Shown: positions 13,204 through 39,563 of the stretch, piece after piece
Position numbering within the stretch: the first letter of the stretch is position 1
How the letters are laid out: each line of letters begins with the position of its first letter
Assembly (NCBI GenBank): GCA_036388715.1
Contig: DASVRH010000405.1
Location: 1 to 41,430, forward strand
DNA from: Solirubrobacteraceae bacterium
GTDB taxonomy: Bacteria > Actinomycetota > Thermoleophilia > Solirubrobacterales > Solirubrobacteraceae
DNA: 41,430 bases
Direction of reading: 5' to 3'
Position numbers and translations under genes: made by a program
Notes under the pieces: model-generated
The model's input: the letters and a program-made list of their open reading frames with translations, nothing else
The model's database searches: none
What the model was told of the DNA's origin: nothing

Positions 13204-16200
13204 CGCGCGCCCAGTCGCGGCCGCGCTGCTTCTGCCAGCGCAGCGGCGTGGACAGGCTCGACTCGACCAGCATCGTCCGTGACGTCGTGGCCGCCGCCGG
13301 CGCGACGGCCGGGTCCGTCCACGTCGACGTGCCCATCGCCGCGCCGTAGAGGTCGCCTGCCTCGGTGAGGCCCGCGGACTGCGACTGCGCGAACTGGGCG
13401 GCCTTCGTGCTGCCGGCGAGCCCGGTCGCGGTCCCGTACATCACGTTGACCATGCCGGAGTCGACGAACTGGAACGCCTCGTTCGGCGCGCCGCCGACGA
13501 GGTCGGACCGCCGGTCGCCGTCGTAGTCGCCGGTGGTGATCGCCGAGCCGAAGTGGTCGCCCGCCTGCGCGAGGCCCTCCCACGAGTTCTGCGACCACTC
13601 CTGCGCGTCCTGCGGGCGGAACCGGGTCAGCCCGCTCGCGCCGCCGTACATGACGTTCACGACCCCCGCCCCGGCGATGCCGTAGTAGTTCTCGTTCGGA
13701 GCGGCCGCGGCGAGATCCTCGCGGCCGTCGGCGTTGAAGTCGCCGGCGGTCAGCGCGCCGCCCCAGCCGTCGCCCGGCTCCTCCGCGCCGGCGGCGTCGG
13801 CCTGGCGCAGCTGTTGCGGGTTCGTGAACCCGGTCGTCGTGCCGTACAGGACGTTGACGACGCCGGCGCCGGCGTTGCCCGACCAGTCCTCGCCCGGCGC
13901 GCCGGCCACCAGCTCCGACCGGCCGTCGCCGTTGAAGTCCGCCGTCGTGAGCGCCGCGCCGAAGCGGTCGCTCTGCTCGGGCAGCCCGGCGGCGTGCTCC
14001 TGGGGGATCTGTCGCGCGCGGACGCTGCCGGCAAGCCCCGACGCGGTGCCGTACATCACGTTGACCATCCCGGACGCGGTCGCCTGGTAGTCCTCGCCGG
14101 GCGCGCCGGCGACGAGGTCCGCGCGGCCGTCGCCGTCGAAGTCCCCGGCCGCGAGCGCCGTGCCGAAGCGGTCGCCGTCCTGAGCGAGGCCCTCGAACGA
14201 GTTCTGCGACCACTCCTGGGCCTTGCCGCGGTCGTTGCCGTCGACGCCGTTCGCCGATCCGTACTGGACGTTGACCACGCCCGCGTCGGGCACGCCGTAG
14301 AAGTTCTCGCCCGGCGCGCTCGCGACGAGGTCGTCGCGGCCGTCGCCGTCGAAGTCGCCCGCGGCCAGCGCCGCCCCGAAGCGGTCACCCGCCTCGTTGG
14401 CGCCGGCGACGTCGCTCTGGAAGAACTGGCGCGGGTTCGGCCCGCCGTTGAGCCCGGTGGCCGAGCCGTACAGCACGTTGACGGCGCCCGCGCGCGCGAG
14501 GCCGGCGAGGTCCTCGCCCGGCGCGCCGACGGCGAGGTCGCTGTAACCGTCGTTGTTGAAGTCGCCGGTGGTCAGCGCCGCGCCCCACTGGTCGCCCTGC
14601 TCGCTGAGGCCGAACGCGGCCGACTGATGGAACTGCAGCTCGCCCGGCCCCGGCTTGCCGAGACCGCTCGCGCCGCCGTACTTCACGTTGACCACGCCGG
14701 CGTCCTCGAGGCCCCACAGCTCCTCGCCCGGGGCGCCGATCGCGAGGTCGTCGTAGCCGTCGCCGTTGAAGTCCGCCGCCGTGCCGAGCTGACGCGTGAA
14801 GGTCGCGCGGTACGTCGCGCTGGTGGCCGGCGTGGTGAGCACGTGCGACTTCGCGCCGCCGTCCGACCACGAGCCGAACACGTAGCGGCGGGTCCCCTTG
14901 AGCTGCGTCGGCGCGTCGACGGTGAGGCCCCAGCCCTGCCACGAGGTGATCGTCTCGGGCCCGGTGAGCGTCCGCTCGTTGACCTTGACCTTGAGGCCGG
15001 TGGGCGCCGTCTCGAACGTCAGCGTGACCTTGTTGGGGTCGAAGTCCTGCACCACGGTCGAGCTCAGGCCCGACGAGTCGGTCGCGGTGAGCCGGATCTC
15101 CAGGTTGGAGTTCGTGGCGGCCGAGAAGTCCTCCGGCGCGGGGCCCTTGAAGCTGATGTTGTTGCCCGTGACGGGCTGGACGTAGGGGTGGTAGTGCGTG
15201 TTGTGATGCAGCTTCACCTCCCACTTGAGGCTGGTGGCCGGGAGGGCGCCGTCCTCGGCGTCGTTGGCGTGGCCCGTCAGCGTGTACTGCTGGCCGACCG
15301 CGAACTTCTGCGACGTCGTGGGCGCGTCGATCACCGGCACCGGCTTGTTGCCGACCTCGATCGTGACCGTGTCGGTGTCCGTCGCCCCGGCCGTGTCGGT
15401 CACGGTCAGCTTCGCCTGGTAGGTGCCGCTCTGCGTGTAGGTGTGCGACGTCGTCGCGCCGGTGCCCGTCCCGCCGTCGCCGAACTCCCAGGCGTACGTC
15501 AGCCTGTTGCCGTCGGCGTCCGAGCTGGCCGTCCCGTCGAACTGCACGCTCAGGGGCGCGACGCCCGTCGACGGGGTGCCCGACGCGGAGGCCACCGGCC
15601 TGCGGTTGCCGCCGCCGACGTAGACGACGCGCCGGACCTGGTTCGGCTGCCCGGGCTGGACGCTCGCGCCGTGCAGGTAGTAGAGCGCCTGGCCGCCGGA
15701 CGGCTTGGGGCCGAACTCCATGTCGAGGACGCTCCAGAGTCCGTCGGCCCAGAACGTGACGGCCCCGGTCTCGGCCGGCGCATCCTTCCGCCACACCTTG
15801 CCGCACACGTAGTCGCCGTAGAGGTAGTCGCGGTCGTACTCGACCGGCCACACGCCGGTGGGCACGAAGACGCCGCCGGTGATCGAGCTGCAGCCCGTGT
15901 TGTGGTGGTACGTCGCGACCGGGTCGGTGATCCCGGCGGGCGGGCCAGGGCAGTTCGTCGACATCGCGGTCGGGCACGCGCCCTCGCGCATCGGCCACCC
16001 GTAGTTCGCGCCGAGCGCGCCCGCGTCGACCTCCTCCCAGGTGTCCTGGCCGACGTCGTTGAAGAAGAACCGCGTCGTCGCGCTCTCCTGGTCGAACGCG
16101 GCCTTGTACGGGTTGCGCACGCCGGCCGCGTAGATCTCCTGGCACTTCCTGCTCGCGTCCGACGTGAAGCCGATCGTGCCGCACTGGACGCTGTCGGCGC

Positions 16201-16873
16201 CGAGGTACGGGTTCGTGTCCGGGATCCCGCCCGTGCGGGTGATCCGCACGACCTTGCCCTGCAGCGTGTTGAGCTCCTGCCCGGCCGTGTTCAGCTCACC
16301 GCAGGCGTTCTGGTTCTTGTAGTAGCAGAGGCCGTCGCCCACCATCACGTAGAGCAGGCCGTCCTTGCCGAAGTGGACGTCGCCGCCGTTGTGCGCCCCC
16401 TGGAACGCCACGATGTTGTCGAGCAGGACGGTCTCGCTGGCGGGGTCGATGACGTTGCCGGTCATCTTGAAGCGCGACAGCCGGTTGACGGGCCCGGTCA
16501 GCAGCGTCGAGCCGCACGTCCCGTGCTTGTTGAACGTGTAATAGACGTACAGGAAGCCGTTGGTCGCGAAGCTCGGGTCGGGCGCGATGCCCATGAGCCC
16601 CTCCTCGCGGTTGCCGCAGACCTTGTTGCCGAGGCTCAGCGCCGGCGTGGTGAGCCGTACGTCGTTCTGGATGACGTCGACGTTGCCGTTCATCGTCGAC
16701 ACGAGGATCCGGCCGTCGGGCAGGATCACCATCGCGCTCGGGAAGTTCGGGATCTCGGCCACCACCTCGTTCTGGAAGCCGGCGGGGACGGCGCCCGGCG
16801 CGGGCGCCGCGCAGAGGCAGGCGGCCACGACAGCGATCATCGTGACCAGGGCGGACCTGAGAGCGGTGTTCAT
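13190..16873 (-). CDS. Secreted multidomain protein: PQQ-type soluble sugar dehydrogenase beta-propeller + PKD domain + conserved middle module + 7 FG-GAP repeats
   Basis: Signal peptide is MNTALRSALVTMIAVVAACLCAAPAPG. GSDH-like motifs include LPDGRILV, EEGLMGIAPDP, HNGGDVHFGKDGLLYVMVGDG, LQGKVVRI and AAGVRNPY. The PKD block reads LSVQFDGTASSDADGNRLTYAWEFGDGG. Seven DFxGDGxxDL...GAPGE repeats follow. Confidence 0.9.
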   Translation of the reverse strand: MNTALRSALVTMIAVVAACLCAAPAPGAVPAGFQNEVVAEIPNFPSAMVILPDGRILVSTMNGNVDVIQNDVRLTTPALSLGNKVCGNREEGLMGIAPDPSFATNGFLYVYYTFNKHGTCGSTLLTGPVNRLSRFKMTGNVIDPASETVLLDNIVAFQGAHNGGDVHFGKDGLLYVMVGDGLCYYKNQNACGELNTAGQELNTLQGKVVRITRTGGIPDTNPYLGADSVQCGTIGFTSDASRKCQEIYAAGVRNPYKAAFDQESATTRFFFNDVGQDTWEEVDAGALGANYGWPMREGACPTAMSTNCPGPPAGITDPVATYHHNTGCSSITGGVFVPTGVWPVEYDRDYLYGDYVCGKVWRKDAPAETGAVTFWADGLWSVLDMEFGPKPSGGQALYYLHGASVQPGQPNQVRRVVYVGGGNRRPVASASGTPSTGVAPLSVQFDGTASSDADGNRLTYAWEFGDGGTGTGATTSHTYTQSGTYQAKLTVTDTAGATDTDTVTIEVGNKPVPVIDAPTTSQKFAVGQQYTLTGHANDAEDGALPATSLKWEVKLHHNTHYHPYVQPVTGNNISFKGPAPEDFSAATNSNLEIRLTATDSSGLSSTVVQDFDPNKVTLTFETAPTGLKVKVNERTLTGPETITSWQGWGLTVDAPTQLKGTRRYVFGSWSDGGAKSHVLTTPATSATYRATFTRQLGTAADFNGDGYDDLAIGAPGEELWGLEDAGVVNVKYGGASGLGKPGPGELQFHQSAAFGLSEQGDQWGAALTTGDFNNDGYSDLAVGAPGEDLAGLARAGAVNVLYGSATGLNGGPNPRQFFQSDVAGANEAGDRFGAALAAGDFDGDGRDDLVASAPGENFYGVPDAGVVNVQYGSANGVDGNDRGKAQEWSQNSFEGLAQDGDRFGTALAAGDFDGDGRADLVAGAPGEDYQATASGMVNVMYGTASGLAGSVRARQIPQEHAAGLPEQSDRFGAALTTADFNGDGRSELVAGAPGEDWSGNAGAGVVNVLYGTTTGFTNPQQLRQADAAGAEEPGDGWGGALTAGDFNADGREDLAAAAPNENYYGIAGAGVVNVMYGGASGLTRFRPQDAQEWSQNSWEGLAQAGDHFGSAITTGDYDGDRRSDLVGGAPNEAFQFVDSGMVNVMYGTATGLAGSTKAAQFAQSQSAGLTEAGDLYGAAMGTSTWTDPAVAPAAATTSRTMLVESSLSTPLRWQKQRGRDWARVKKH
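13325..14773 (-). repeat. Seven tandem FG-GAP (integrin-alpha-like) coding repeats of 66-71 aa each
   Basis: Counted from the translation: 70, 69, 71, 68, 66, 71 and 68 residues. Each starts D[FY][ND]xDG and contains APGE/APNE, VNVxYG and a [RQHGL][FWY]G[AGST]A element (DRFGAA, DQWGAA, DGWGGA, DHFGSA, DLYGAA). Seven repeats predict a 7-bladed propeller. About 200-bp periodicity is visible in the DNA. Confidence 0.85.
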
Positions 16874-17042
16874 CAGCGGCGTGGGGAGGTTGGCGGCGTG
16901 GGGGATCCTGCGGTGAGGCCGGCCATCCGTGGCGGCCGACGAGAACCTACCTCAGTCCTGCGCCCGCTTGACCGGCTTTCCGTCCAATTCGGCGGATGTA
17001 CGAGTTCATGGGCCTCGCTCACCTCCTAGGCTTCCGACCGGC

Positions 17043-26199: not shown

Positions 26200-26889
26200 T
26201 CACGCGGCCGGCGGCGGCGTGACCCGGAAGCGCAGGACGCCGATCGCCTTCTCGGCGGGCTGCTCGTCCCACGGCCTGACGCCGAGCTCCGCGCGGCCGC
26301 CGAGCCGGCGCAGCAGCGCCGCTCGTCCCGGGGTGAGGGGGAACCGCAGCGTCGTGGTGACGCCCTCCATCGTCGGCACGCGGACGTCGCCCGACGGCGC
26401 CGCGTCGAGGCGTACGCCGTTGAGGTTCACGTAGATCTCCTGGCCCCCGGCGATGATGCCCTGCTCGGCGCCGGTCTCGTTGCGGACGCGCAGCCGGAGG
26501 ATCAGGGAGGCCGGGGTCGACGAGGCCGACAGGAGGCGCACCTGCGTGCCGCCGAGCAGCAGCGGGCGGTCCTCGCCGCCGAGCAGGAGCGTGGCGCTGC
26601 GCGTGCTGCAGCGGACGGCGTCGTCGGACGGGCCCGGGTCGGCGACCTCGCTGCACGGCGGGACGCCGCCCGCGTCCGACGAGGTCGTGGTGGGAGCCGT
26701 CGTCGTGGTCGTCCCGGGCACCGTGGCGCCCGCGGGCTCGTTGGTGCCGCTCTCGCGCGGCGGCGCGTCGTCGGCGCGGCCGAACGCAATGATCGCGACG
26801 TCCGCCGCGAGGACGAGCACGAGCACGGCGATGATCGCCTTCTCGAGCGCGGTCGCGCTGCTGAACCTCTTGCCGAATCCCGATGCCAT
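26200..26889 (-). CDS. Hypothetical single-pass membrane protein with a Thr/Pro-rich linker
   Basis: The ATG at 26889 is 3 codons inside the track's TTG start. One TM helix (IIAVLVLVLAADVAIIAF) is followed by a TTTTAPTTTS linker and a beta-rich domain. It lies upstream of the phosphatase in the same operon. Confidence 0.55.
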   Translation of the reverse strand: MASGFGKRFSSATALEKAIIAVLVLVLAADVAIIAFGRADDAPPRESGTNEPAGATVPGTTTTTAPTTTSSDAGGVPPCSEVADPGPSDDAVRCSTRSATLLLGGEDRPLLLGGTQVRLLSASSTPASLILRLRVRNETGAEQGIIAGGQEIYVNLNGVRLDAAPSGDVRVPTMEGVTTTLRFPLTPGRAALLRRLGGRAELGVRPWDEQPAEKAIGVLRFRVTPPPAA

Positions 26890-26985
26890 GGCTGCCAATC
26901 CCGACGGGGGAGCGCCGACGTTAGCCGAATCGGCCCCCCTCGCGACGGCAATGCACCTTCCGCACGTCCTTTAGGCTCCCTGCCG

Positions 26986-27933
26986 ATGCGCTCGACGATC
27001 GCCGCGGCTTTCAGCCTGCACCTCGATCTCGCGGCGGACGAGGCCATCCGGGCGCTGCGCGATGCCGGCGTGCCGGCGATCGTGCTCAAGGGGCCGTCGA
27101 TCGCGACGTGGCTGTATCCCGAGGGGACGCGCCGCTACAACGACATCGACCTCCTCGTGCCGGTGGACGGGCTGCCACGGACGCGCGCGGCGCTGGCGGG
27201 CCTCGGGTACAGCGGCGGCTACGCGCCGCTCGAGGAGGCGCGCGAGGCCCCGGGACACATCGACCACCACGCCGAGAACTGGCGCCGCCCGGGCTCGGGC
27301 ATCGACCTGCACTGGCGCATCCCCGGGATGACCGTGCCCGCCGAGCGGGCGTGGGAGCTCCTGGCCGACCACGTCGAGCCGCTGCCGGTCGGCTCGCGGA
27401 CCCTGCCGGTGCTGGACCACACGGCGCTCGCGCTGCACATCGCGCTGCACGCCGCCCAGCACGCCGGCGTCGTGGACGGGCACCCGCTCCGCGACCTCGA
27501 GCGCCTGGTGGCGACGCTGCCGGACGACGCGTGGCCGCAGGTCGAGCGCCTTGCGGCCGAGGTGGGGGCCACCGGCGCGCTCGCGGTCGGCCTGGGCCAG
27601 ACGCCCCAGGGCCGCGAGATCGCCGAGCGCCACGGCATCCGCGGCGGCATCGACGACCTCCACGTCGCGCTGAACGCCATCGGCGCGCCGCCGTCGACGG
27701 CGGGCCTGAGCACGCTCGGCCGGGGCGTGCTCGGCCGCGCGCCGGCCCGCGACGTCGCCCGCGTCCTCTTCCCGCCGCCGTCGCTGATGCGCGAGACGCA
27801 CCGGATCGCCGGGCGCGGGAGCGCCGGGCTGGCCCTCGCCTACGCCGCCCGCCTGGGCGACCGGCTGGTGCACCTGCCGCGCGCCGTCGTCGCGCTCAGG
27901 CGCGCCCGGCGGCTCCTGCGCGAGGGCGGCTAG
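26986..27933 (+). CDS. Nucleotidyltransferase family protein (PF14907-like uncharacterised nucleotidyltransferase)
   Basis: ATG at 26986 gives ...AIRALRDAGVPAIVLKGPSIATWLYPEGTRRYNDIDLLVPVDGLPRTRAALAGLGY...GIDLHWRIPG. This matches my memory of the family pattern (LKG...R...DIDLLV...LH). The track ORF starting at 25945 is a read-through. Confidence 0.75.
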   Translation: MRSTIAAAFSLHLDLAADEAIRALRDAGVPAIVLKGPSIATWLYPEGTRRYNDIDLLVPVDGLPRTRAALAGLGYSGGYAPLEEAREAPGHIDHHAENWRRPGSGIDLHWRIPGMTVPAERAWELLADHVEPLPVGSRTLPVLDHTALALHIALHAAQHAGVVDGHPLRDLERLVATLPDDAWPQVERLAAEVGATGALAVGLGQTPQGREIAERHGIRGGIDDLHVALNAIGAPPSTAGLSTLGRGVLGRAPARDVARVLFPPPSLMRETHRIAGRGSAGLALAYAARLGDRLVHLPRAVVALRRARRLLREGG

Positions 27934-28901
27934 AGCGCGGGGACGGGCTGCCGGCGCAGCCACTCGACGGTCTGCGCGACGCCCTCCTCGAGCCCGATCC
28001 GCGCCTCCCACCCGAGCAGCCGCTTCGCCTTCTCGACCGAAGGCCACCGGCGCACGACGTCGACCTCGAACGACGGGAGGTGCTCGACCTCGAAGGCGTC
28101 CGGATCCTCGCCGCAGGCGGCCCAGATGACCCGCGCGATGTCGAGCACCGTCCGCTCGTCGGCGGCGCTGACGTTGAAGTCCTCGTTCAGCCCGTTCGGA
28201 GAGGAGGTCGCGGTGACGATCCCGTCGGCGATGTCGTCGACGTGCGTCAGCGTGCGCGTCTGCGTGCCGTCGCCGAAGAGCTGGAGCGGCCGCTGGCCGC
28301 TGAGGACCTTGCGGATGACGTCGGGGACCCTGTGCGCGATCCCCGGCTCGGGCTCGGGCATCTCGCCGGGCCCGTAGGCGTTGAACGGGCGGCAGATCGT
28401 GAAGGGCAGGCCGTGCTCGTCGTGCGCGGCGCGGCAGTAGACCTCGCCGGTGAGCTTGCTGAACCCGTACGCCGAGCGCGGGATCGGCGTGTCGTGGATG
28501 TGCTCCTCGCTCGTGGGGTACTCGGTGGCGCGCTCGAAGACCATGCTCGAGCTCACGTACACGAAGCGCTCGGCGCCGTGGTCCAGCGAAGCGCGGATCA
28601 CCGCGTTGTAGAGCGCGTTGTTGACCTCGGTCAGGGTGTGGGGGAGGCGGTGGAAGTTCGCGATGCCGCCGACGATCGCCGCGAGGTGGATGACGTGGGA
28701 GCAGCCCTGGGTCGCCGCCCGCGCCTCGGAGATGTCGCGCAGGTCGCCGCGGTGCACCTCGCAGCCCTCGCGCATCCACTGGGGCGCCTCGCGCTGGTCG
28801 GAGACGCGCACGTCGAAGGCGGGGTCGCGCAGCAGCCGGCGCACGACGGCGGCGCCGATCGTGCCGGCTCCGCCGGTGACGAGAACCCTGCTCACGGCCA
28901 T
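27930..28901 (-). CDS. NAD-dependent epimerase/dehydratase family protein
   Basis: MAVSRVLVTGGAGTIGAAVV..., with YGFSK (YxxxK) and FGDGTQTRTLTHVDDIADG. Confidence 0.85.
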   Translation of the reverse strand: MAVSRVLVTGGAGTIGAAVVRRLLRDPAFDVRVSDQREAPQWMREGCEVHRGDLRDISEARAATQGCSHVIHLAAIVGGIANFHRLPHTLTEVNNALYNAVIRASLDHGAERFVYVSSSMVFERATEYPTSEEHIHDTPIPRSAYGFSKLTGEVYCRAAHDEHGLPFTICRPFNAYGPGEMPEPEPGIAHRVPDVIRKVLSGQRPLQLFGDGTQTRTLTHVDDIADGIVTATSSPNGLNEDFNVSAADERTVLDIARVIWAACGEDPDAFEVEHLPSFEVDVVRRWPSVEKAKRLLGWEARIGLEEGVAQTVEWLRRQPVPAL

Positions 28902-28930: not shown

Positions 28931-29563
28931 ATGACCGAGGCCCGCCCTGACCTGGTGGAGATCGAGGGCCTGGGGCGGAGCTTCGGCGCCCGCGAGGTCA
29001 TCCGCCGGCTGGATCTGCGCGTGCCCGCCGGCGCCCGTGTCGCGCTCCGTGGCCCGAACGGCGCGGGCAAGTCCACGGCCCTGCGCTGCGTCGCGGGCAC
29101 GCTCGCGCCCACGCGCGGGACGGTCGCCATCGACGGCTTCGCGGCGGGCAGCGTCCCCGCCCGGCGCCGGATCGGCGTCTCGTTCGCCCAGGAGCGCTCG
29201 TTCCACATGCGGCTGAACGGCCGGGCCAACCTGATCTTCTTCGCCCAGCTGCACCTCGGCAGCCGCCGCGCCGCGGTGCGCGAGGTGGACGCGCTGATCG
29301 AGGAGCTCGACCTGCGGGAGATCGCGCCCCGCCGGCTCGACCAGTGCTCGACCGGCATGGTCCAGCAGCTCGCGATCGCGCGGGCGCTGAGCGCCGACCC
29401 CGACGTGCTCCTGCTCGACGAGCCGACGCGGTCGCTCGACAAGGAGGCGATCGCGCGGTTCTGGGCGGCGATCGACCGGCGCCCGGACGCGGCGGTGCTC
29501 ATCGCGACGCACCGCGACGAGGATCTCGAGAGGTGCGGGAGCATCGTTGACTTCCCGACCTGA
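28931..29563 (+). CDS. ABC transporter ATP-binding protein
   Basis: Walker A is GPNGAGKST, the signature-like motif is CSTGMVQQLAIARAL, and Walker B is LLLDEPTRSLD. Confidence 0.9.
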   Translation: MTEARPDLVEIEGLGRSFGAREVIRRLDLRVPAGARVALRGPNGAGKSTALRCVAGTLAPTRGTVAIDGFAAGSVPARRRIGVSFAQERSFHMRLNGRANLIFFAQLHLGSRRAAVREVDALIEELDLREIAPRRLDQCSTGMVQQLAIARALSADPDVLLLDEPTRSLDKEAIARFWAAIDRRPDAAVLIATHRDEDLERCGSIVDFPT

Positions 29564-30365
29564 GCTGCCGCGCCTGGGCGCCATCGCCGCCTTCACGCGG
29601 CGGGATGCGTCGAACGCCTCCTCCTACCGGCTCGCGATCGCTCTCGATCTCGTCCTCAGCGTGCTGCCGCTGGTCATCTACTTCTACATCTCGAAGCTGT
29701 TCGACATCCCGCCGAGCGCCGCGCTGCAGAACGCGCCGTCGTACTTCGCGTTCGTCGTCGTCGGGCTCACGCTCGCGACCGTCGTGCAGGCGGGCACCAT
29801 CGGCATCGCGGCGACCCTGCGCCAGGAGCAGTTCACCGGCACGCTGGAGGCGATGGGCGTCAAGCCCGTGACGCCGATCGAGATGGCGCTCGGGATCGCT
29901 TCCTATCCGTTCCTGTTCGGCACGCTGCGCGCGACGCTCTACCTCGTGCTCGCGGCGACGGTCTTCGGCGCCGACTTCTCGGACGCGAGCGTGCCCGGCC
30001 TGGTGATCGGGTTCGCCGTGACCGGCCTCGCCCTCGTGGCGATCGGCATCGCGGTCGCCGCCGTGGTCTTCGTCGTGAAGCGCGGCGAGGTCTTCAGCAA
30101 CATCACCGTCTCGTTGCTCGTGATCCTCGGCGGCGCGTACTTCCCCGTCACGATCTTCCCGGCCGGCGTCGAGGGGGCGGCGAAGGTCGTGCCGACGCGC
30201 TTCGCCTTCGAGGGTCTCCGATCCGCGCTGTTCACGGGGACGGACTGGGCCGCGCCGATCCTCAAGCTGCTCGTGTTCGGTGCCCTCGCGCTGCCGTTGG
30301 CCCTGCTCTTCTTCAGCTGGGCGCTCGACCTCGCGAAGCGACGTGGCTCCCTCGGGCAGTACTGA
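29547..30365 (+). CDS. ABC-2 type transporter permease
   Basis: Six predicted hydrophobic helices. The start overlaps the ATPase gene by 17 nt. The TTG start is as given in the track. Confidence 0.8.
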   Translation: MTSRPELPRLGAIAAFTRRDASNASSYRLAIALDLVLSVLPLVIYFYISKLFDIPPSAALQNAPSYFAFVVVGLTLATVVQAGTIGIAATLRQEQFTGTLEAMGVKPVTPIEMALGIASYPFLFGTLRATLYLVLAATVFGADFSDASVPGLVIGFAVTGLALVAIGIAVAAVVFVVKRGEVFSNITVSLLVILGGAYFPVTIFPAGVEGAAKVVPTRFAFEGLRSALFTGTDWAAPILKLLVFGALALPLALLFFSWALDLAKRRGSLGQY

Positions 30366-31536
30366 GCAGCCGCTGCGCCCCACGCCGCTCGAGGTCGCGA
30401 GCGGCGTGGTCGTCGGCGAGGCGCCGGCGGCCGCCCCGCCCGACGCGGGCGGCGGGCTGAGCCCGCGACAGGCGCTCGAGCGGCTGGTGCTGCCGGCGTT
30501 GCTCCGGCCGCCGTGCCTCGTGAGCTTCTCCGGCGGTCGCGACTCGTCGCTCGTGCTGACGATCGCCGCGCATGTGGCGCGGCGCGAGGGGCTGCCGCTC
30601 CCGAGCCCCATCACCGTCCGGGTCGCCGACGCGCCCGCCGCGCAGGAGGACTGGCACCAGCAGACGCTCCTGCATCACCTCGGCCTCACGGACCAGTGGA
30701 TCAGGCTCGACGTCCCGCAGGGGGAGTTCGACTGGGTCGGCCCGGTCGCGGGACGAGTGCTGCGGCGGCACGGGCTCCTGTGGCCGCCCAACGCGTTCTT
30801 CCACGCGCCGCTCTTCGAGCAGGCGCGCGGCGGGTCGCTGCTCACCGGTGTCGGCGGCGACCAGATGATGGCGACGTGGCGCTCGGCACGGGCGATGCAG
30901 GTGGTGTCGGGTCGCGCGCGGCCGGCCCCCCGCGACGCCCTGCACGTCGGCCTCGCCTTCGCGCCGCGGGCGGTGCGAGCCGCGGTGCGGCGACGGCGCG
31001 ACGACGTCCCTTCGTGGCTGCGCCCGCCGGTGGCACGCGACGTCATGCGCAGGCGCGCGGCCGAGGACGCGAGCGAGCCCCGCCGCTGGGACCGCCGCCT
31101 GCCCTGGGTCGAGCGGCGGCGGATCCTCGCCGCGACACGCTGGAGCCTCGCGCTGATCGCGGCCGACTCCGGCACGCACGTGGCGCACCCGCTTGCCGAC
31201 CCGCTCTTCGTCGGCGCGCTGGCCCGGGCCGGCGGCGCCGGCGGTCTCGGCGACCGTCGCGCGATCATCAACATGCTTCTCTCCGACCTGCTCCCCGACG
31301 TCCTGCTCGGCCGCGCCGACAAGGCGTTGTTCCAGGAGGTGTTCTTCAGCGCGCCGTTCCGGGAGTTCGTGCGGACGTGGGACGGCCGCGGCGTCGACCC
31401 CGCGCTGGTGGACGTCGAGCGCCTTCGGGCGGAGTGGGCGCAGGAGGTGCCGCACTCCCGCACCGCGCTGGTGCTGCAGGCGGCCTGGCTCTCAGCCCAG
31501 GGCGGCGAGGCGGTCGACCGTGGCATCGAGCGCTGA
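30343..31536 (+). CDS. Asparagine-synthetase-domain (PP-loop, lasso-cyclase-like) protein lacking an N-terminal glutaminase-type domain, paralogue 1
   Basis: PP-loop is LVSFSGGRDSS. AsnB C-terminal blocks are HVAHPLADPLF and LLPDVLLGRADKALF. Similarity to paralogue 2 already covers PLEVASGVVVG, so the start must lie upstream of about 30385. GTG 30343 is chosen here and GTG 30280 is also possible. Confidence 0.8.
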   Translation: MAPSGSTEQPLRPTPLEVASGVVVGEAPAAAPPDAGGGLSPRQALERLVLPALLRPPCLVSFSGGRDSSLVLTIAAHVARREGLPLPSPITVRVADAPAAQEDWHQQTLLHHLGLTDQWIRLDVPQGEFDWVGPVAGRVLRRHGLLWPPNAFFHAPLFEQARGGSLLTGVGGDQMMATWRSARAMQVVSGRARPAPRDALHVGLAFAPRAVRAAVRRRRDDVPSWLRPPVARDVMRRRAAEDASEPRRWDRRLPWVERRRILAATRWSLALIAADSGTHVAHPLADPLFVGALARAGGAGGLGDRRAIINMLLSDLLPDVLLGRADKALFQEVFFSAPFREFVRTWDGRGVDPALVDVERLRAEWAQEVPHSRTALVLQAAWLSAQGGEAVDRGIER

Positions 31537-32367
31537 CCAGTCCCTCGGGCGCGTCAGCTCGTAGGCCGGGAGGCTCACGAGGTCGAGCAGGCCGACGGGA
31601 TCGTCGCCGGGCAGGATCGCCGAGCGCTGCGCGACGAGCGGAGCGAACCGCTCGGAGATCGGGACGGGCCGCAACGCGACGTCGTCGCCCCACGACAGCT
31701 TGATCCACCCGCCGAGGGGCACCGCCGCGGGGACCGGTGGCACCGCCAGGCGGCGACGCGTCGCGTCGCGCACGAGCGGCGCCGCGCCGTCGCCCGTCAG
31801 CCGCTCGGCGGCCTCCGGGCGCAGGTCGATCGCACGCGGCCCCGCGAGGGCGTCGCGACCCTCGATCACGAGGACATCATCGGTCACGATCGGCGCCCCG
31901 GCGAGGTGCAGCGCGGCCATCAGCGTGCTCTTCCCGGCCTCCCGCGCGCCGATCACCGCCCACGCCCTGCCGCCCGCGACGAACGCGCCCGCGTGGAGGC
32001 TCTCCCGGCCCGCCCAGCGCGCGAAGACCGCGCCCACCGGCGCCAGATAGGGGTGGACGAGCTCGTCGTCGGCGATCTCGTACGGGGTGACGAACGTGGC
32101 CGAGCGATCCTGCCGACGCAGGACCAGCGATCCGCCGCGCAGCAGCGGGAACGTCGCCTCGTCGCTGCCGATGTGGATCGGCAGCGACCCATCTCCGGTG
32201 CGGCGGTCGATGTCGATACCTCCCCAATCCTCACCAGCGCTGTTGAGAAGGCCTGAATCGACGTCACTCCGGATTTGCAACCCGTAGGCGCCTCGTAGTA
32301 GCGTGCCGACATTCTTCTGCTGCGGCGACGTCGCAGGAGGCCGCCAAGACTTCCAATCAGGAGGCAC
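31492..32367 (-). CDS. HPr-kinase-like (HprK-related) P-loop kinase
   Basis: VIGAREAGKSTLMAAL is the P-loop, followed by APIVTDDVLVI as in HPr kinase/phosphorylase relatives. Start is uncertain. GTG 32367 would sit 1 nt from the divergent peptide ATG, and its first codons CCT CCT are the antisense of that gene's AGGAGG. TTG 32280 is the only other in-frame candidate. Confidence 0.75.
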   Translation of the reverse strand: MPPDWKSWRPPATSPQQKNVGTLLRGAYGLQIRSDVDSGLLNSAGEDWGGIDIDRRTGDGSLPIHIGSDEATFPLLRGGSLVLRRQDRSATFVTPYEIADDELVHPYLAPVGAVFARWAGRESLHAGAFVAGGRAWAVIGAREAGKSTLMAALHLAGAPIVTDDVLVIEGRDALAGPRAIDLRPEAAERLTGDGAAPLVRDATRRRLAVPPVPAAVPLGGWIKLSWGDDVALRPVPISERFAPLVAQRSAILPGDDPVGLLDLVSLPAYELTRPRDWSALDATVDRLAALG

Positions 32368-32368
32368 G

Positions 32369-32545
32369 ATGCCGAAGGCAGAGTATTACGCGCCGTCGCT
32401 CACGACACTCGGGTCCGTGCAGGACCTGACCCTGGGCTCCGGTGGTGGTTTCCCCGACACCTGCGACCTCGCGGTCGGCTCGGTGATCGGCGCCGATCCG
32501 TGCTCCGGTCAGCCGGCGCCGGGCGGCATCGGGACGAAGCCGTAG
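32369..32545 (+). CDS. Lasso-type RiPP precursor peptide (58 aa)
   Basis: AGGAGG lies 4 nt upstream of the ATG. The product is MPKAEYYAPSLTTLGSVQDLTL-GSGGGFPDTCDLAVGSVIGADPCSGQPAPGGIGTKP. The leader fits YxxPxLx3Gx5Tx exactly, and the core starts with Gly1 and has Asp8. Confidence 0.8.
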   Translation: MPKAEYYAPSLTTLGSVQDLTLGSGGGFPDTCDLAVGSVIGADPCSGQPAPGGIGTKP

Positions 32546-32550
32546 GCAGT

Positions 32551-32571
32551 TCCGGCCGCGAACCGGCCGGA
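32551..32571 (+). promoter_or_regulatory. Intercistronic hairpin between the precursor gene and the downstream cyclase-like gene
   Basis: TCCGGCCG cgaac CGGCCGGA forms an 8-bp stem with a 5-nt loop. It starts 6 nt after the precursor stop and ends 6 nt before the ATG at 32578. Confidence 0.55.
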
Positions 32572-32577
32572 CACGCA

Positions 32578-33732
32578 ATGCAGGACGTGGCGGCGGGGAG
32601 ACCCGCCGTTCGTCTGTCCGGACTCGAGATCGCGACGCATCTCGTCTTCGGCCGTGCGCGACACACGCGCCTGCCGGAGGCGCGCGCGGAGTCGCCGCGC
32701 GAGGCGCTGGAGGCGGTCGTCCGCGAGGCGCTCGTGCGGCCGCCGTGCGTCGTCAGCTTCTCGGGCGGCCGCGACTCGTCGGTCGTCCTCGCGGTCGCCG
32801 CGCACGTCGCTCGCCGCGAGGGGCTCCCTCTGCCGGTCCCCGCGACGATCCGCGCGCCCGCGGTGGCCGGGAGCGTCGAGGACGACTGGCAGGAGCGGGT
32901 CGTCGCGCACCTGAGGCTGCCCGAGTGGCAGCGCGAGGTCGTCGACGACCAGCTCGACTTCGTCGGGCCCGTCGCCCGGGACGTCCTCGCGCGGCACGGA
33001 CTGCTGTTCCCCGCGCAGGTCCACTTCCACGTCCCCCTCCTGCGCCACGCGTCCGGCGGCACGCTGCTGACCGGCGCCGGCGGCGACGACGTGCTGGAGG
33101 CGGGCCCGCGGGCGGTGCTCGCCTTCGCCTGGCGCCGGTTCCGCGCGGGTCATCAGCGCACGGCGGTCACGCCGCTGATCGCGGCCGCGCCGCGGAGGGC
33201 CCAGGTCGCGTACGTACGGCGACGGCGCCGGCTGCGCGCCCCCTGGCTGACCGACCGGGCGCACCGGGAGCTCGACGATTCCATCGCCGAGCAGATCAGG
33301 CCGCCCGGCGCGGCGGCCGGGATGCGCTGGACGTACGAGCAGCGCTGGCTCGAGCTCGTCAAGGACAGCCTCGGCCTGCTCGCCACCGATGCGGGCGCCG
33401 CGATCGCCCACCCGGTCGCCGACGGCCGCTTCGTCGCCGCGCTGGCGGGCGCGGCGGGATGGGCCGGGCCGGGCGGGCGCTCGCGGCTGCTGCCGCGTCT
33501 GGCGGGCGACCTCCTGCCCCGCGACGTCCTGCAGCGCCGCGACAAGACGGCCTTCGCCGGCGTCTACTGGAACCGCCACACGCGCGAGCTGCTCGAGACG
33601 TGGCAGGGCGAGGGCGTCGACACCGACGTCGTGGACGTGGAGGCCCTGCGCGAGACGTGGGCGTCCCGCCACGTCAACATGGCGACCGCGCTGCTGCTGC
33701 AGTCAGTCTGGCTGGCCCGCCGCGGCGGCTGA
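32578..33732 (+). CDS. Asparagine-synthetase-domain (PP-loop, lasso-cyclase-like) protein lacking an N-terminal glutaminase-type domain, paralogue 2
   Basis: VVSFSGGRDSS, AIAHPVADGRF and LLPRDVLQRRDKTAF are colinear with, and highly similar to, the 30343-31536 product. ATG 32578 is chosen so the gene does not overlap the precursor gene. Confidence 0.8.
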   Translation: MQDVAAGRPAVRLSGLEIATHLVFGRARHTRLPEARAESPREALEAVVREALVRPPCVVSFSGGRDSSVVLAVAAHVARREGLPLPVPATIRAPAVAGSVEDDWQERVVAHLRLPEWQREVVDDQLDFVGPVARDVLARHGLLFPAQVHFHVPLLRHASGGTLLTGAGGDDVLEAGPRAVLAFAWRRFRAGHQRTAVTPLIAAAPRRAQVAYVRRRRRLRAPWLTDRAHRELDDSIAEQIRPPGAAAGMRWTYEQRWLELVKDSLGLLATDAGAAIAHPVADGRFVAALAGAAGWAGPGGRSRLLPRLAGDLLPRDVLQRRDKTAFAGVYWNRHTRELLETWQGEGVDTDVVDVEALRETWASRHVNMATALLLQSVWLARRGG

Positions 33733-35980: not shown

Positions 35981-37033
35981 ATGACGGCGCTCGTCGACGA
36001 GGGCTTCTGGGCGGGGAGAAACGCCCTTGTCACCGGACACACCGGATTCAAGGGCGCCTGGCTGGCGCTGTGGCTCGAGTCGCTGGGCGCCTCCATGCAC
36101 GGCCTCTCGCTCGACCCTCCCTCGACGCCGTCGCTGCACGAGCTGGCCGGCCTTCCCGCCTCCCCGCGCATCGACGTCCGCGACGCCGGCGCGGTGCGCG
36201 ACGCGGTCGCCTCCGCCCGGCCGTCCGTCGTCTTCCACCTCGCCGCGCAGCCGCTCGTCCGCCGCTCCTACGCCGAGCCGGCCGAGACGTTCGCCGTCAA
36301 CGTGCAGGGGACGGCGCACGTCCTCGACGCCGTCCGCGCGGTGGAGGGCGTCGAGGCGGTCGTCGTCGTCACGTCCGACAAGTGCTACGAGCCGCACGAG
36401 GGCGAGTTCGGGCACCGCGAGACGGATCCTCTCGGCGGCCGCGATCCGTACTCGGCCTCGAAGGCGGCGGCGGAGGTGGTCTGCGCCGCGTACCGGTCGT
36501 CGTTCGGGCTGCCGCTGGCGACGGCGCGTGCGGGCAACGTCATCGGCGGCGGTGACTGGGGCGCCGACCGGCTGCTGCCCGACGTCATGCGGGCGGCGCA
36601 GGGCGGAGGGGCGGTCGAGCTGCGCAGCCCCTCGGCGGTGCGGCCGTGGCAGCACGTGCTCAACCCGCTCGCCGGCTACCTCGTCCTCGCCCAGGCGCTG
36701 GCCGGCGACCCGGAGGCGTTCGCCGACGCGTGGAACTTCGGGCCGGCGGTCGACGACGCGCTGACGGTGCGCGAGCTGGTCGGGCGGATCGGGATGCTGT
36801 GGGGCAGCGAGATCCCCGTCGCGACGCAGCCCGGCGAGCACCCGGCCGAGACCGCGACGCTGCGGCTCGACTCGACCCGCGCGCGGGTGCGGCTGGGGTG
36901 GCGCCCGGTGTGGGACCTCGACGAGGGGCTGCACGCGATCGTCGACTGGTACCGGGCCTACGAGCGCGGCGCCGACCTGCGAGAGACCTCTTTGGCGCAG
37001 ATCGCGGCGTACGAGGCCGCCGCGCGGCGTTAG
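35981..37033 (+). CDS. rfbG: CDP-glucose 4,6-dehydratase
   Basis: FWAGRNALVTGHTGFKGAWLALWLESLGA is the signature N-terminus. Also present are VVVTSDKCYE, DPYSASKAAAE, RAGNVIGGGDW and VRPWQHVLNPL. ATG 35981 is 2 codons inside the track's TTG start. Confidence 0.9.
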   Translation: MTALVDEGFWAGRNALVTGHTGFKGAWLALWLESLGASMHGLSLDPPSTPSLHELAGLPASPRIDVRDAGAVRDAVASARPSVVFHLAAQPLVRRSYAEPAETFAVNVQGTAHVLDAVRAVEGVEAVVVVTSDKCYEPHEGEFGHRETDPLGGRDPYSASKAAAEVVCAAYRSSFGLPLATARAGNVIGGGDWGADRLLPDVMRAAQGGGAVELRSPSAVRPWQHVLNPLAGYLVLAQALAGDPEAFADAWNFGPAVDDALTVRELVGRIGMLWGSEIPVATQPGEHPAETATLRLDSTRARVRLGWRPVWDLDEGLHAIVDWYRAYERGADLRETSLAQIAAYEAAARR

Positions 37034-37046
37034 GCTCGCGCCCCTC

Positions 37047-39563
37047 ATGCTCCGCCGCGCCCTCGCCGTCGCGTTCCTCGCGACGCTCCTCCTCGCCCCT
37101 CCCGCCTCCGCGATCGACTTCGTCGACGAGGACTTCGCCGCCGGCTTCGAGGAGGTGGTGGTCGCCGAGGGCCTCAACGAGCCGACCGGGATGGCGTACG
37201 GACCCGGTGGCCGGCTCTACGTCGCCGAGCGCGAGGGGCGCGTGCGGGTCGTCGAGCCGGACGGGACGCTGGCCCCCGACCCCGTCGTCGACATCTCCGA
37301 CCACGTCAACTCGTACTCCGAGCGCGGGCTGCTCGGGATCGCGGTCGACAACGACTTCGCCTCCCACCCGTTCCTCTACCTGCTGTACACGTACGAGCAC
37401 GACGGGGAGGACCCGTTGGCGGCGAAGACGTCCCGCCTCACCCGCGTGCGCCTCGACGAGCTGAACCCCTCGGTCGCCTACGCCCCGTTCGAGGAGACGG
37501 TGCTGATCGGCGACGACGACGACGACGGCGACGAGCTCTGCGACATCGGCGAGGTGTGCATCCCGGCCGACGACGAGTATCACTCGATCGGCACCGTCCG
37601 CCAGGGTCCCGACGGGACGCTCTACGCGGGCAGCGGGGACTCCAACGCGACCGGGGACTTCTGGGCGCAGTCCGACGCGATGCGCCCGTTCGACCCTCAG
37701 AGCCTCGCCGGCAAGATCATGCGCGTCGATCGCGACGGCGACCCGGTCGAGCCCTCCTTCTGCACCGACCCCGCGCAGCCGTGCTCGCACGTCTTCGCGA
37801 TGGGCTTCCGCAACCCGTACCGCTTCAGCGTCCGCGGGAACGCGGATCTCATCGTCGGCGACGTCGGGTCCTCGCAGTACGAGGAGGTCAACCGCGTGCT
37901 CCCCGGGCGCGACCACGGCTGGCCGTGCTGGGAGGGCTACGGGTGGACGGCGATCTACCAGGGGCGCGAGGAGTGCCAGGAGCGCTACGCCCTCACTCCG
38001 CCGCCGTCGAACCTGACCTCGCCGTGGATCGTCTACGGCGGCAGCCGCGCGGTCGGGCAGGGCGCCGCGGTCTACGCGGGCCCGACGTACACGGGCGCGA
38101 CCTTCCCGCCGAAGTTCGCCGCGCAGCAGCGCTTCTTCTACGGCGACACCGTGCGCGGGTGGCTGAACACCGCGTACTTCGACGGCGGCGCGGTGCGGAC
38201 GAAGTCGTTCGCGACCGGCGTGAACTACGCGGTCGAGATGATCCAGTCGCCGGAGGGCGACGTCGTCTACAGCGAGTACGGCGGCGCGATCAAGCGGATC
38301 CGCTTCGCGTGCGCGCCGGACGGCACCGCGTGCAACAAGACGCCGATCGCGCGCCTCTCCGCGATCCCCGACCACGGCGAGGACGTCGACGAGATCACCT
38401 TCTCGGCGGCCGGCAGCTCCGACCCAGACGGCGACGCCCTGACCTACAGCTGGGACTTCGACGGCGACGGCGACTTCGAGCTCACCGGGCCCGACGCCAC
38501 GCCGCCACCGCAGTCCTTCGCGCCCGGCCGCTACGTCCCGCGCGTCGTCGTGGGTGACGGCTCGCGCACCGCCGTCGCGCAGCAGGTCGTCTTTCCCGGC
38601 TACGACCCGCCGTCGGTCACGATCGACCCGGTCGACGAGGAGTTCCGCGCCGGCGAGTCGGTCGACGTGAGCGGCTCGGCGAGCGATCCGAACACGCCGG
38701 CCCAGGCGCTCGACCCGCTCGTCTGGAAGGTCACGCTGCTGCACAATGACCACGTCCATCCGCGCGGGCGCTGGGTCGGGCCGACCGCGACGTTCAAGAC
38801 GCTCGACAGCCACGACGCCGACTCCGGCTACCTCGTCGAGCTGACCGCGCGCAACGCGATCGGGATGACGGCGACGAAGTCGGTCCAGCTGCATCCGAAG
38901 ACGGTGAAGGTGACGTTGGCCAGCGACCCGCCGGGGGCGCGGCTGCTCTACGGCGCGCGGGAGGGCTGGGCGCCGTTCACGATCGACGCGGCGGTGAACT
39001 ACACGACGCCGCTGACCGCCGACTACTCCGTCTACTACGAGGGCGAGTGGCTGCCGTTCTCGCACTGGGAGCACACGCCGTCGCAGCAGTTCTCGAACGT
39101 GAAGGTCCCGGACCACGACGTCACGTACACCGCGGTCTACGGCCCGCGGAGCACGAAGGAGCGCCCGCCGGGAGAGCTCGCGCCGCCGCTCGAGCCGCCG
39201 GGCCCGCCGATCGGCCCGTTCCAGCCGCCGCGCGGCCCGCGGGGGACGCTGGGCGCGTTCCGCGGTCGTCGCGTGAGCGGCACCGCCACCGCTCCGCTCG
39301 GCGTCCGCCGGGTGCGGATCGCGCTGGCCCGCCGCGCCGGCCGCCGCTGCCGCCTCCTCCGCGCCGGGCGCTTCACGAAGCCCACCCGCTGCTCGCGCCG
39401 GACGTGGACGAAGGCGAGGCTCGGCCGCGGCAAGGCCACCCGCGCCTGGTCGCTCACCCTCCGCAAGCCGCTCCGCCCGGGCCGCTACACGATCGTCGTC
39501 CGCGTCGAGGACATGGCGGGCGCCACCGCCAACCGCTCCTTCGCCCGCCGCCTCACGCGCTAG
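37047..39563 (+). CDS. Secreted PQQ-type soluble sugar dehydrogenase beta-propeller + PKD + conserved middle module + Arg-rich C-terminal domain
   Basis: Signal peptide is MLRRALAVAFLATLLLAPPASA. GSDH-like motifs are GLNEPTGMAYGPGGRLYVAEREGRVRVV, ERGLLGIAVD, LAGKIMRV and FAMGFRNPYR. The PKD block reads ITFSAAGSSDPDGDALTYSWDFDGDG. It is a paralogue of the N-terminal two thirds of the 13190-16873 product. Confidence 0.9.
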   Translation: MLRRALAVAFLATLLLAPPASAIDFVDEDFAAGFEEVVVAEGLNEPTGMAYGPGGRLYVAEREGRVRVVEPDGTLAPDPVVDISDHVNSYSERGLLGIAVDNDFASHPFLYLLYTYEHDGEDPLAAKTSRLTRVRLDELNPSVAYAPFEETVLIGDDDDDGDELCDIGEVCIPADDEYHSIGTVRQGPDGTLYAGSGDSNATGDFWAQSDAMRPFDPQSLAGKIMRVDRDGDPVEPSFCTDPAQPCSHVFAMGFRNPYRFSVRGNADLIVGDVGSSQYEEVNRVLPGRDHGWPCWEGYGWTAIYQGREECQERYALTPPPSNLTSPWIVYGGSRAVGQGAAVYAGPTYTGATFPPKFAAQQRFFYGDTVRGWLNTAYFDGGAVRTKSFATGVNYAVEMIQSPEGDVVYSEYGGAIKRIRFACAPDGTACNKTPIARLSAIPDHGEDVDEITFSAAGSSDPDGDALTYSWDFDGDGDFELTGPDATPPPQSFAPGRYVPRVVVGDGSRTAVAQQVVFPGYDPPSVTIDPVDEEFRAGESVDVSGSASDPNTPAQALDPLVWKVTLLHNDHVHPRGRWVGPTATFKTLDSHDADSGYLVELTARNAIGMTATKSVQLHPKTVKVTLASDPPGARLLYGAREGWAPFTIDAAVNYTTPLTADYSVYYEGEWLPFSHWEHTPSQQFSNVKVPDHDVTYTAVYGPRSTKERPPGELAPPLEPPGPPIGPFQPPRGPRGTLGAFRGRRVSGTATAPLGVRRVRIALARRAGRRCRLLRAGRFTKPTRCSRRTWTKARLGRGKATRAWSLTLRKPLRPGRYTIVVRVEDMAGATANRSFARRLTR

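Follow-up and report, generated by a model that had tools for sequence, protein, structure and literature searches.

Layout of the locus

The stretch of DNA described here, referred to in the following as the window, comprises the 41,430 nucleotides of contig DASVRH010000405.1 from a Solirubrobacteraceae bacterium (GenBank assembly GCA_036388715.1), with a GC content of 72%. It includes a gene set for a predicted lasso-type peptide, consisting of a nucleotidyltransferase, an ATP-binding cassette (ABC) transporter, an HprK-like kinase, a precursor peptide and two short proteins of the asparagine synthase (Asn synthase) family, which we call Asn1 and Asn2 (Table 1). An earlier note on this DNA had described two paralogous AsnB/lasso-cyclase homologues bracketing a kinase–precursor pair, and this description was confirmed: every peptide block quoted in the note was found in the two proteins, which are 43% identical over ≈390 aligned columns (BLASTP, E = 3e-60), and the kinase and precursor genes lie between them. 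We consider the locus to be a rare variant of lasso peptide biosynthesis that may make a doubly cross-linked peptide.

Table 1. Positions in the window of the peptide gene set and of features interspersed with it.
Feature	Position	Strand	Basis
NTP_transf_5 nucleotidyltransferase (PsmN-like), 315 residues	26986-27933	+	Pfam PF14907, E = 1.8e-28
NAD-dependent sugar epimerase/dehydratase, between the nucleotidyltransferase and ABC genes	27930-28901	-	Pfam Epimerase PF01370, E = 8e-53
ABC transporter ATPase	28931-29563	+	Pfam ABC_tran, E = 2e-26
ABC-2 type permease	29547-30365	+	Pfam ABC2_membrane, E = 1.6e-10
Asn1, N-truncated Asn_synthase-domain protein, 397 residues	30343-31536	+	Pfam PF00733, E = 9e-07, model positions 19-333 of 354
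HprK/PEPCK-fold P-loop kinase, 291 residues	31492-32367	-	Weak TIGR04352 match and fold search
Precursor peptide, 58 residues	32369-32545	+	Near-threshold NF033521 match, leader positions, AGGAGG
GC-rich stem-loop, between the precursor stop codon and the Asn2 start	32550-32571	+	Fold of -19.9 kcal/mol
Asn2, second N-truncated Asn_synthase-domain protein, 384 residues	32578-33732	+	Pfam PF00733, E = 1.3e-11, model positions 3-331 of 354

Asn1 and Asn2

Both proteins matched PF00733 above its gathering cut-off and over nearly the whole length of the 354-position model, with no other domain and no GATase domain. The PP-loop, SFSGGRDSS, occupies residues 61–69 in Asn1 and 60–68 in Asn2, leaving ≈60 residues before the SGG motif in each protein (Ser63 and Ser62, respectively), compared to roughly 230 in AsnB. 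The earlier note had called the two proteins short at the N-terminus, with 40–50 residues before the PP-loop; they are genuinely short AsnB-family enzymes, and the length has to be corrected to ≈60.

The note had also recognized that the starts might be mis-set, hiding a glutaminase-type domain upstream. This was ruled out by the coding DNA upstream of the genes and by the shortness of their homologues. The 5' end of Asn1 overlaps the gene for the ABC-2 permease, whose Pfam match runs to its end, and the precursor open reading frame (ORF) stops 32 nucleotides upstream of Asn2. Because the permease and precursor genes occupy the DNA 5' of Asn1 and Asn2, there is no space for an upstream domain. 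An alternative GTG start at 32587 would give an Asn2 of 381 residues. The N-terminal GATase-like domain of 150–250 residues found in canonical C proteins is thus not present in either protein.

Asn1 is the positional counterpart of the single cyclase in related clusters, with a convergent 3' overlap with the kinase gene, and Asn2 is the additional gene, placed after the precursor. When we scored the 78 columns that are conserved in at least 85% of the protein family described below, Asn1 departed from the consensus at 6 and Asn2 at 2 of them; the family median is 3 and the maximum 14. The SGGRDS motif, the TGxGGD motif, which we take to be equivalent to the S346–D351 segment of AsnB, and a conserved Lys are kept in both copies, and both look functional, as far as can be predicted. 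A degenerate paralogue is unsupported by these counts, and the earlier proposal of a catalytic subunit paired with a degenerate scaffold finds no backing in the sequences. The AlphaFold2 (AF2) model of Asn2, with a predicted local distance difference test (pLDDT) score of 89, gave TsnB9, carbapenam synthetase, beta-lactam synthetase and human ASNS as its best Foldseek matches.

The similarity of the two genes at the DNA level around the PP-loop had been taken to indicate that the duplication was recent or that gene conversion had occurred. We reject this reading. In the PP-loop block, where Asn1 and Asn2 have 71% protein identity, the same codon is used at 55% of the identical residues, compared to 54% expected from codon usage alone, and the block is invariant across 93 family members. 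In a neighbor-joining tree of the family, which is star-like and was used only for the separation of clades, not for exact placement, the Asn1 and Asn2 clades are not sisters. Synonymous sites between the two genes are saturated, and other assemblies contain separate orthologues of Asn1 and of Asn2, with identities of 59–69%. By these comparisons, the duplication is old and there is no sign of gene conversion.

The precursor peptide

The precursor consists of a 22-residue leader, MPKAEYYAPSLTTLGSVQDLTL, and a core, GSGGGFPDTCDLAVGSVIGADPCSGQPAPGGIGTKP, that runs to the stop codon. Y-17, P-14, L-12 and T-2 can be read directly from the leader sequence, and a strong AGGAGG ribosome-binding site is found 5 nucleotides upstream of the ATG. 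The precursor scored 18.1 bits against the NCBIfam lasso leader model NF033521, which has a cut-off of 19. The core, whose monoisotopic mass is 3241.50 Da in the linear form, begins with GSGGGFPD, and has the small first residue (Gly1) and the acidic residue within positions 7–9 (Asp8) of a canonical lasso precursor. No second precursor was found in the window, even with a relaxed leader pattern.

Among six distinct orthologous precursors, all four leader positions are kept, as are G1, F6-P7-D8, C10, D11, D21, C23 and a C-terminal K-P in the core, while the 9–12 residues before the KP differ in both sequence and length. The window-type precursors (the window, at 32540-32545, and the related loci L001, L085, L086, L087 and L088) all end in Lys-Pro, and the Thr preceding this Lys is not strictly conserved. 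None of them has the C-terminal Ser that is the phospho-acceptor in paeninodin and pseudomycoidin. For the wider family, core statistics were compiled from 94 unique predicted cores in loci L003–L083, taken from precursor ORFs beside the kinase gene. Ser or Thr occurs within the last three residues in 76 of these 94 cores. Most of the wider-family cores have Ser-containing tails (N-x-S-P, N-C-S-S) that resemble kinase acceptor sites.

The stem-loop between the precursor and Asn2 has a z-score of -1.7 relative to shuffled sequences, which is not significant alone. The six window-type loci examined (the window, L001, L085, L086, L087 and L088) all have a hairpin at this intergenic position, although its stem differs in sequence from locus to locus. 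The element has no T-run, and may act in attenuation or in mRNA stabilization and thereby set the precursor-to-enzyme ratio.

The family of short cyclases

A search of 5.8 billion proteins yielded more than 877 homologues, with lengths of 341–454 residues among the 120 matches listed. A profile search of 1.84 billion representatives, with a cut-off of E ≤ 1e-30, resulted in 1064 clusters at 50% identity, nearly all of 380–420 residues. Since nearly all homologues are short, the short form is, judging by predicted protein lengths, a family trait. The family is thus a large actinobacterial one of more than 1000 clusters, and Asn1 and Asn2 are intact members of it. The only sequence match to a solved structure below E = 0.1 was AsnB, and the family profile aligned to the E. 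coli protein from residue 205 onward. No solved lasso cyclase structure was found among the sequence and fold matches of the family profile and the Asn2 model.

When 30 family members were scanned against curated models, asn_synth_AEB matched 29 of them (best E = 1e-07), the lasso cyclase model NF033535 matched 15 (best E = 1.9e-06), the albusnodin-type macrolactam cyclase model NF033561 matched 11 (best E = 2.3e-13) and the XrtA-associated amidotransferase model TIGR03108 matched 8 (best E = 1.5e-03). The matches to both cyclase models were sub-threshold, and no family match to any of these models came near its cut-off. TIGR01536 reached 15.6 bits, relative to a cut-off of 267, and Asn2 did not match NF033561 even at E ≤ 1.

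We analyzed the genomic context of the family in 80 loci, which were taken from GTDB species genomes and, with one exception, belong to Actinomycetota. Sources include Solirubrobacterales, Gaiellales and Acidimicrobiia, as well as the cultured Nocardioides mangrovicus, Jiangella asiatica and Phytoactinopolyspora halotolerans. The usual gene order is ABC ATPase, ABC-2 permease, NTP_transf_5, PqqD, Transglut_core3, short Asn synthase and opposite-strand kinase, followed by one or two small ORFs. A lasso leader signature, Y-x-x-P-x-L-x3-G-x(4-6)-T-x, was present in small ORFs of 81 of 84 loci. In addition, we found natural fusions of the short Asn synthase to an N-terminal Transglut_core3 (B2) domain (P0155), to a C-terminal NTP_transf_5 domain (P0211) and to a C-terminal sulfotransferase (P0188 and P0203). 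Another member, the 768-residue P0217, has a ≈360-residue C-terminal extension with no Pfam match. A version of the locus in Jiangella was described in a genome mining study from 2026 as an antiSMASH lasso cluster with cyclase, B2 and PqqD; its precursors are rejected by RODEO, and its product is not known (PMC13608877).

The family is genetically tied to lasso-type precursors and maturation genes, because precursors, PqqD, B2, kinase and nucleotidyltransferase co-occur with it and because of the fusions. This agrees with the link to lasso-type peptide maturation, rather than sugar amidation, that the earlier note had drawn. A place within a clade of sugar or uronic-acid amidotransferases, which the note had seen as the outcome that would speak against such a link, is not borne out by the genomic context, which is the strongest evidence on this point; a polysaccharide marker lies within 10 kilobases (kb) in only 25 of the 84 loci.

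Loci with two cyclases

Two short Asn synthases with no PqqD or Transglut_core3 were found only in the window and in L001, L002, L004, L085, L086, L087 and L088, of which L087 and L088 are short fragments where the cluster is only partly visible. Most one-cyclase relatives encode a PqqD-like B1 protein and a Transglut_core3 B2 protein together with the cyclase, and the window does not. Family hidden Markov models, run with filters off on the window, L001, L002 and L004, detected no B1 or B2 in any of them and reached E-values of 1.2 and 0.67 at best. The two-cyclase synteny is retained in the window-type loci at 59–69% identity. Some one-cyclase loci likewise have no detectable B1/B2. In two of these, L052 and L062, the immediate upstream genes are not B1/B2-like; the gene filter used, based on GC content at third codon positions (GC3), is unreliable at the 65–68% GC of these loci.

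Kinase and tailoring genes

The kinase had no Pfam match and matched the NCBIfam model HprK_rel_A (TIGR04352, HprK-related kinase A) with E = 4e-05, far under the cut-off. Its AF2 model (pLDDT 94) matched phosphoenolpyruvate (PEP) carboxykinase (E = 1e-07) and HprK/P (E = 7e-05) in Foldseek. These two proteins share a P-loop fold. A comparison of the kinase sequence with solved structures gave nothing useful, and it was the fold search that supplied the matches. Some kinase homologues carry the source name HPr(Ser) kinase.

In a row of genes that otherwise run in one direction, the kinase gene lies antisense, and its 3' end overlaps the 3' end of Asn1 by 45 nucleotides; such a convergent overlap between cyclase and kinase was found in most related loci. 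The sole in-frame start codon 5' of a conserved RGAYG motif is the GTG at 32367, 1 nucleotide from the precursor ATG at 32369. Because the two starts adjoin, the upstream regions of the kinase and precursor each lie inside the other gene.

With an HprK-family kinase and an NTP_transf_5 gene, the latter at the same place in L001, L004 and L085, the cluster has both hallmarks of kinase/nucleotidyltransferase-tailored lasso clusters. HprK homologues of Bacillota phosphorylate the C-terminal Ser of lasso precursors, as in paeninodin (PMC8498205, PMC6993621), and the NTP_transf_5 protein PsmN puts hexoses on the phosphoserine in pseudomycoidin (PMC6993621). The actinobacterial family thus corresponds to these Bacillota clusters, but with a truncated cyclase.

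Lys–Asp pairs in the cores of the family

A K-x5-D pair is found in 61 of the 94 cores, compared to 7.2 ± 2.5 in shuffled sequences. It commonly takes the form K-x-x-G-x-x-D-[GY]-[FWY], with the Lys located 0–19 residues past the predicted leader cleavage site. In 45 cores there is a K-x5-D or K-x6-D pair and no Asp or Glu at positions 7–9 after that site, and for that reason the canonical ring through the alpha-amine is impossible from the predicted site in these cores. Conversely, 23 of the 26 cores that have neither pair do have Asp or Glu at positions 7–9. By atom count, a ring from Lys N-zeta to Asp(i+6) comprises 26 atoms, the same as a Gly1–Glu8 ring and inside the 22–29-atom lasso range; the counting convention is confirmed by a published "8 aa/25 atom ring" (PMC13352647). 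One locus, L041, has a single cyclase and two precursors with the aligned ring segments GAGQGMDD (G1 to D8) and GLVKGQGMSD (K4 to D10).

These patterns suggest that the family may use Lys amines for ring closure. If the K-x5-D ring is true, it would result in a lasso-like topology with a retained N-terminal extension, which has not been described so far.

Comparison with known systems

Two known enzymes serve as precedents: TriC, from the triculamin system, is an N-truncated lasso macrocyclase that works without B1/B2 (PMC12070363), and PsmC cyclizes without a leader and without a leader peptidase (PMC6993621). Like the triculamin/albusnodin type, the window has an AsnB-like macrocyclase without the 150–250-residue N-terminal domain, in a cluster without the B1 protein, or RiPP (peptide made on the ribosome and modified after translation) recognition element (RRE), and without B2 (PMC12070363). 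NF033561, the model for that type, is also the best curated-model match of the relatives of the window proteins. In contrast, the triculamin precursor has a follower and no leader, whereas the window precursor has a full canonical 22-residue leader; an acetyltransferase is present there, whereas none was found among the window genes scanned; and the window has a kinase, a nucleotidyltransferase and two cyclase paralogues rather than one. Because the triculamin system uses a follower peptide and an acetyltransferase, the window locus is not a member of it.

The paeninodin and pseudomycoidin clusters of Bacillota (A, C, B1, B2, K, N and D) share with the window an HprK-like kinase, an NTP_transf_5 protein, a transporter, an AsnB-like cyclase and a precursor with a leader (PMC8498205, PMC6993621). 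Some of those clusters also include sulfotransferases, and members of the short cyclase family are fused to sulfotransferase domains. However, the C proteins described for the Bacillota clusters are standard ones, B1 and B2 are encoded there, phosphorylation is at a C-terminal Ser where the window has Lys-Pro, and the phylum is a different one; the transporter in the window is of the ABC-2 type. Neither the triculamin nor the paeninodin/pseudomycoidin systems combine a truncated cyclase and a canonical leader with two paralogues, the absence of B1/B2 and a Lys-Pro end.

Asn1 and Asn2 share with the canonical cyclases (McjC, NF033535) an AsnB-type synthetase domain with an SGGxDS PP-loop and an adjacent lasso-type precursor with Gly1 and Asp8, and presumably the ATP-dependent activation of Asp or Glu followed by amine attack. 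Unlike those cyclases, they have no N-terminal GATase-like domain, and NF033535 was matched only below its threshold and only in relatives. E. coli AsnB, beta-lactam synthetase, carbapenam synthetase and TsnB9 likewise share this synthetase-domain fold and a PP-loop ATP pyrophosphatase motif, but these all have an N-terminal nucleophile (Ntn) glutaminase-type domain, active or not, act on small-molecule substrates and are only 12–19% identical to the short proteins.

A second macrocycle formed through a Lys side-chain amine is known from the class V lasso peptides lariocidin B and gelatinamin A (PMC13178200), whose topology class a product with two amide bonds would resemble. In class V, however, the Lys is joined to the C-terminal carboxylate by the clostripain-like transpeptidase GelP, which is extracellular, and Gly is lost in the process. 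The window locus encodes no peptidase of this kind, and the catalyst proposed for it is a second ATP-dependent AsnB-like enzyme.

Proposed pathway and alternative explanations

We tentatively favor a pathway in which two ATP-dependent amide bonds are made on one precursor, Gly1–Asp8 by Asn1 and Lys35 to Asp11 or Asp21 by Asn2, although our confidence in it falls somewhat short of even. The enzymes of the family would be lasso-cyclase-like macrolactam synthetases, in which the side-chain carboxylate of an Asp is adenylated and then attacked by an amine, and in this rare sub-lineage both enzymes would work on the single precursor encoded between them. After removal of the leader by a protease that would have to be encoded elsewhere, Asn1 would join the alpha-amine of Gly1 to Asp8, forming a ring of 8 residues and 25 atoms. 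Asn2 would make a second ATP-dependent amide, most likely between the invariant Asp11 or Asp21 and the epsilon-amine of Lys35, the penultimate residue, which is likewise invariant. The resulting bicyclic peptide would be additionally braced by a Cys10–Cys23 bond, then tailored by the HprK-like kinase and the NTP_transf_5 enzyme through phosphorylation and possibly glycosylation, and exported by the ABC-2 pump. Two amide bonds, one of the roles suggested in the earlier note, have some support in that there is a single precursor with invariant G1, D8, D11, D21 and K-P, and thus one substrate with two possible nucleophiles.

A broader version of this proposal seems doubtful to us: that each truncated cyclase installs its own isopeptide bond, giving a bicyclic, disulfide-braced lasso-type peptide without B1/B2, and that the family often forms its rings from Lys, keeping the N-terminal extension.

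Several points weigh against a pathway with two amide bonds. The leader retains the exact recognition motif for B1/B2, yet neither the 41-kb window nor the flanks available for related loci showed a B1 or B2, and because these proteins were not found, an essential step, the removal of the leader, is unaccounted for in cis. Nor does the loss of B1/B2 require a second cyclase, since some one-cyclase loci have no detectable B1/B2 either. Neither Asn1 nor Asn2 matched a curated lasso cyclase model at E ≤ 0.01, including NF033535 and NF033561, and an hhalign profile comparison with McjC (from an E. coli plasmid) found nothing, at a probability of 4%, McjC being too divergent as a single sequence for the result to be informative. 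The only known second lasso macrocycle, that of class V, is made by a clostripain-like transpeptidase and not by a second AsnB-like enzyme (PMC13178200). In addition, one enzyme might handle both kinds of ring, given the single cyclase and both core types in L041. Finally, we infer both the chemistry of the family and its product from genes alone.

Alternatively, only the Gly1–Asp8 macrolactam might be made, by an obligate pair of Asn1 and Asn2 in which one is catalytic while its partner serves to bind the leader or hold the peptide, functionally replacing the missing RRE and perhaps the N-terminal domain. B1/B2 are missing exactly in the lineage with the second copy, and the leader motif is still under selection, so that some protein must read the leader. 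The truncated cyclase of triculamin is thought to bind its follower peptide directly, according to PMC12070363 and bioRxiv 10.64898/2026.07.03.736388. On the other hand, a non-catalytic partner would be expected to drift, whereas the PP-loop, TGxGGD and the conserved Lys are not relaxed in either copy, and one-cyclase loci with no detectable B1/B2 also occur. We consider such a hetero-oligomer rather unlikely.

B1 and B2 might also be supplied in trans from another lasso-type cluster in the same genome, making the window locus a satellite in which the two cyclases are alternative or partly redundant, perhaps differing in ring or substrate preference, or in which one of them serves precursors encoded elsewhere. 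In favor of this, the canonical leader with Y-17, P-14, L-12 and T-2 is retained, and at least two family clusters are present in several genomes or contigs (L023, L065 and L067; L042 and L050, from one metagenome-assembled genome). The two-cyclase arrangement has moreover arisen more than once (L046, L031). We nevertheless regard this explanation as distinctly unlikely, since the set of two cyclases and one precursor is kept at 59–69% protein identity in about eight related loci, which argues for a joint function on this precursor, and since no second precursor is found nearby.

It is improbable, in our view, that one copy is the cyclase and the other an ammonia-dependent enzyme that converts Asp to Asn or makes a C-terminal amide, using AsnB chemistry without a glutaminase domain. 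The AsnB synthetase-domain fold with its PP-loop and the three invariant Asp residues of the core would suit such an activity; however, Asn1 and Asn2 are members of one cyclase-associated family and show no active-site changes that distinguish them, and nothing in the family context points to amidation. Most improbable of all is a role of Asn1 and Asn2 as amidotransferases for sugars or uronic acids in the polysaccharide locus around them, with the small ORF being incidental: the cluster does lie among such genes (epimerases, UDP-glucose dehydrogenase next door, WecG, Wzy-like and tyrosine-kinase-type proteins), with synteny kept in L001 and L085, and the XrtA-associated model was weakly matched by some members, but the genes travel with lasso precursors, PqqD, B2 and kinase regardless of polysaccharide content, are fused to B2 and NTP_transf_5 domains, have no glutaminase domain and do not reach the cut-offs of TIGR03108 and TIGR01536.

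Lasso peptides are valued as scaffolds, and their cyclases are poorly understood; in particular, the function of the N-terminal domain of these enzymes is still unknown (PMC12070363). A cyclase without this domain is the rule in the very large, uncharacterized actinobacterial lineage described here, which keeps canonical leaders and usually B1/B2, and can thus be placed between the canonical and triculamin systems. If Asn1 and Asn2 do make two amide bonds, the locus would offer a way to bicyclic lasso-type peptides that needs few genes and differs from the one through a transpeptidase in class V. If they instead form a complex, it would show that leader recognition can be built into the cyclase itself. 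The window locus is a testable lead into an abundant, uncharacterized branch of lasso biosynthesis.

Surrounding genes

The peptide gene set sits inside a polysaccharide-biosynthesis locus that fills most of the window. Genes identified by Pfam include several NAD-dependent epimerases/dehydratases, a UDP-glucose dehydrogenase, a WecG/TagA glycosyltransferase, a Wzy-like polymerase and an FkbM methyltransferase. A CpsB-type phosphatase is named from the Pfam match of its counterpart in L001; a tyrosine-kinase-type protein was read from its translation, and its L001 counterpart matches CbiA/AAA_31; a sugar transferase was likewise read from the translation. UDP-glucose dehydrogenase and the WecG glycosyltransferase are encoded directly downstream of Asn2, and an epimerase upstream of the ABC genes, an arrangement that is kept in L001 and L085. 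These neighbors could supply nucleoside diphosphate (NDP) sugars for a PsmN-like glycosylation, or could reflect simple inheritance.

The place of the epimerase gene between the nucleotidyltransferase and the transporter is also kept in L001 and L085, and the enzyme may possibly have a role in the peptide pathway. In most related loci, the ABC ATPase gene is the first of the cluster. Scans with promoter and terminator consensus sequences gave no sites, as expected at 72% GC.

Adjoining the nucleotidyltransferase gene, on the minus strand at 26284-26970, is the gene for a conserved membrane-anchored or secreted protein of about 190–250 residues with no Pfam match. Its counterparts in L001 are at 3601-4341 and 11152-11733, and a paralogue is found just 3' of Asn2 in L001, L002 and L086; the protein is not obviously a protease. 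Further away, two large secreted proteins are encoded at 13190-16951 (minus strand) and 36765-39563 (plus strand). Their translations indicate a common N-terminal sugar-dehydrogenase-like beta-propeller followed by a PKD-like segment, and the protein at 13190-16951 additionally appears to have many FG-GAP/integrin-like DGxxDL repeats. Finally, a 324-residue ORF at 10395-11369 (plus strand) has good coding statistics and no Pfam match, and by eye its product looks ATP-grasp-like.

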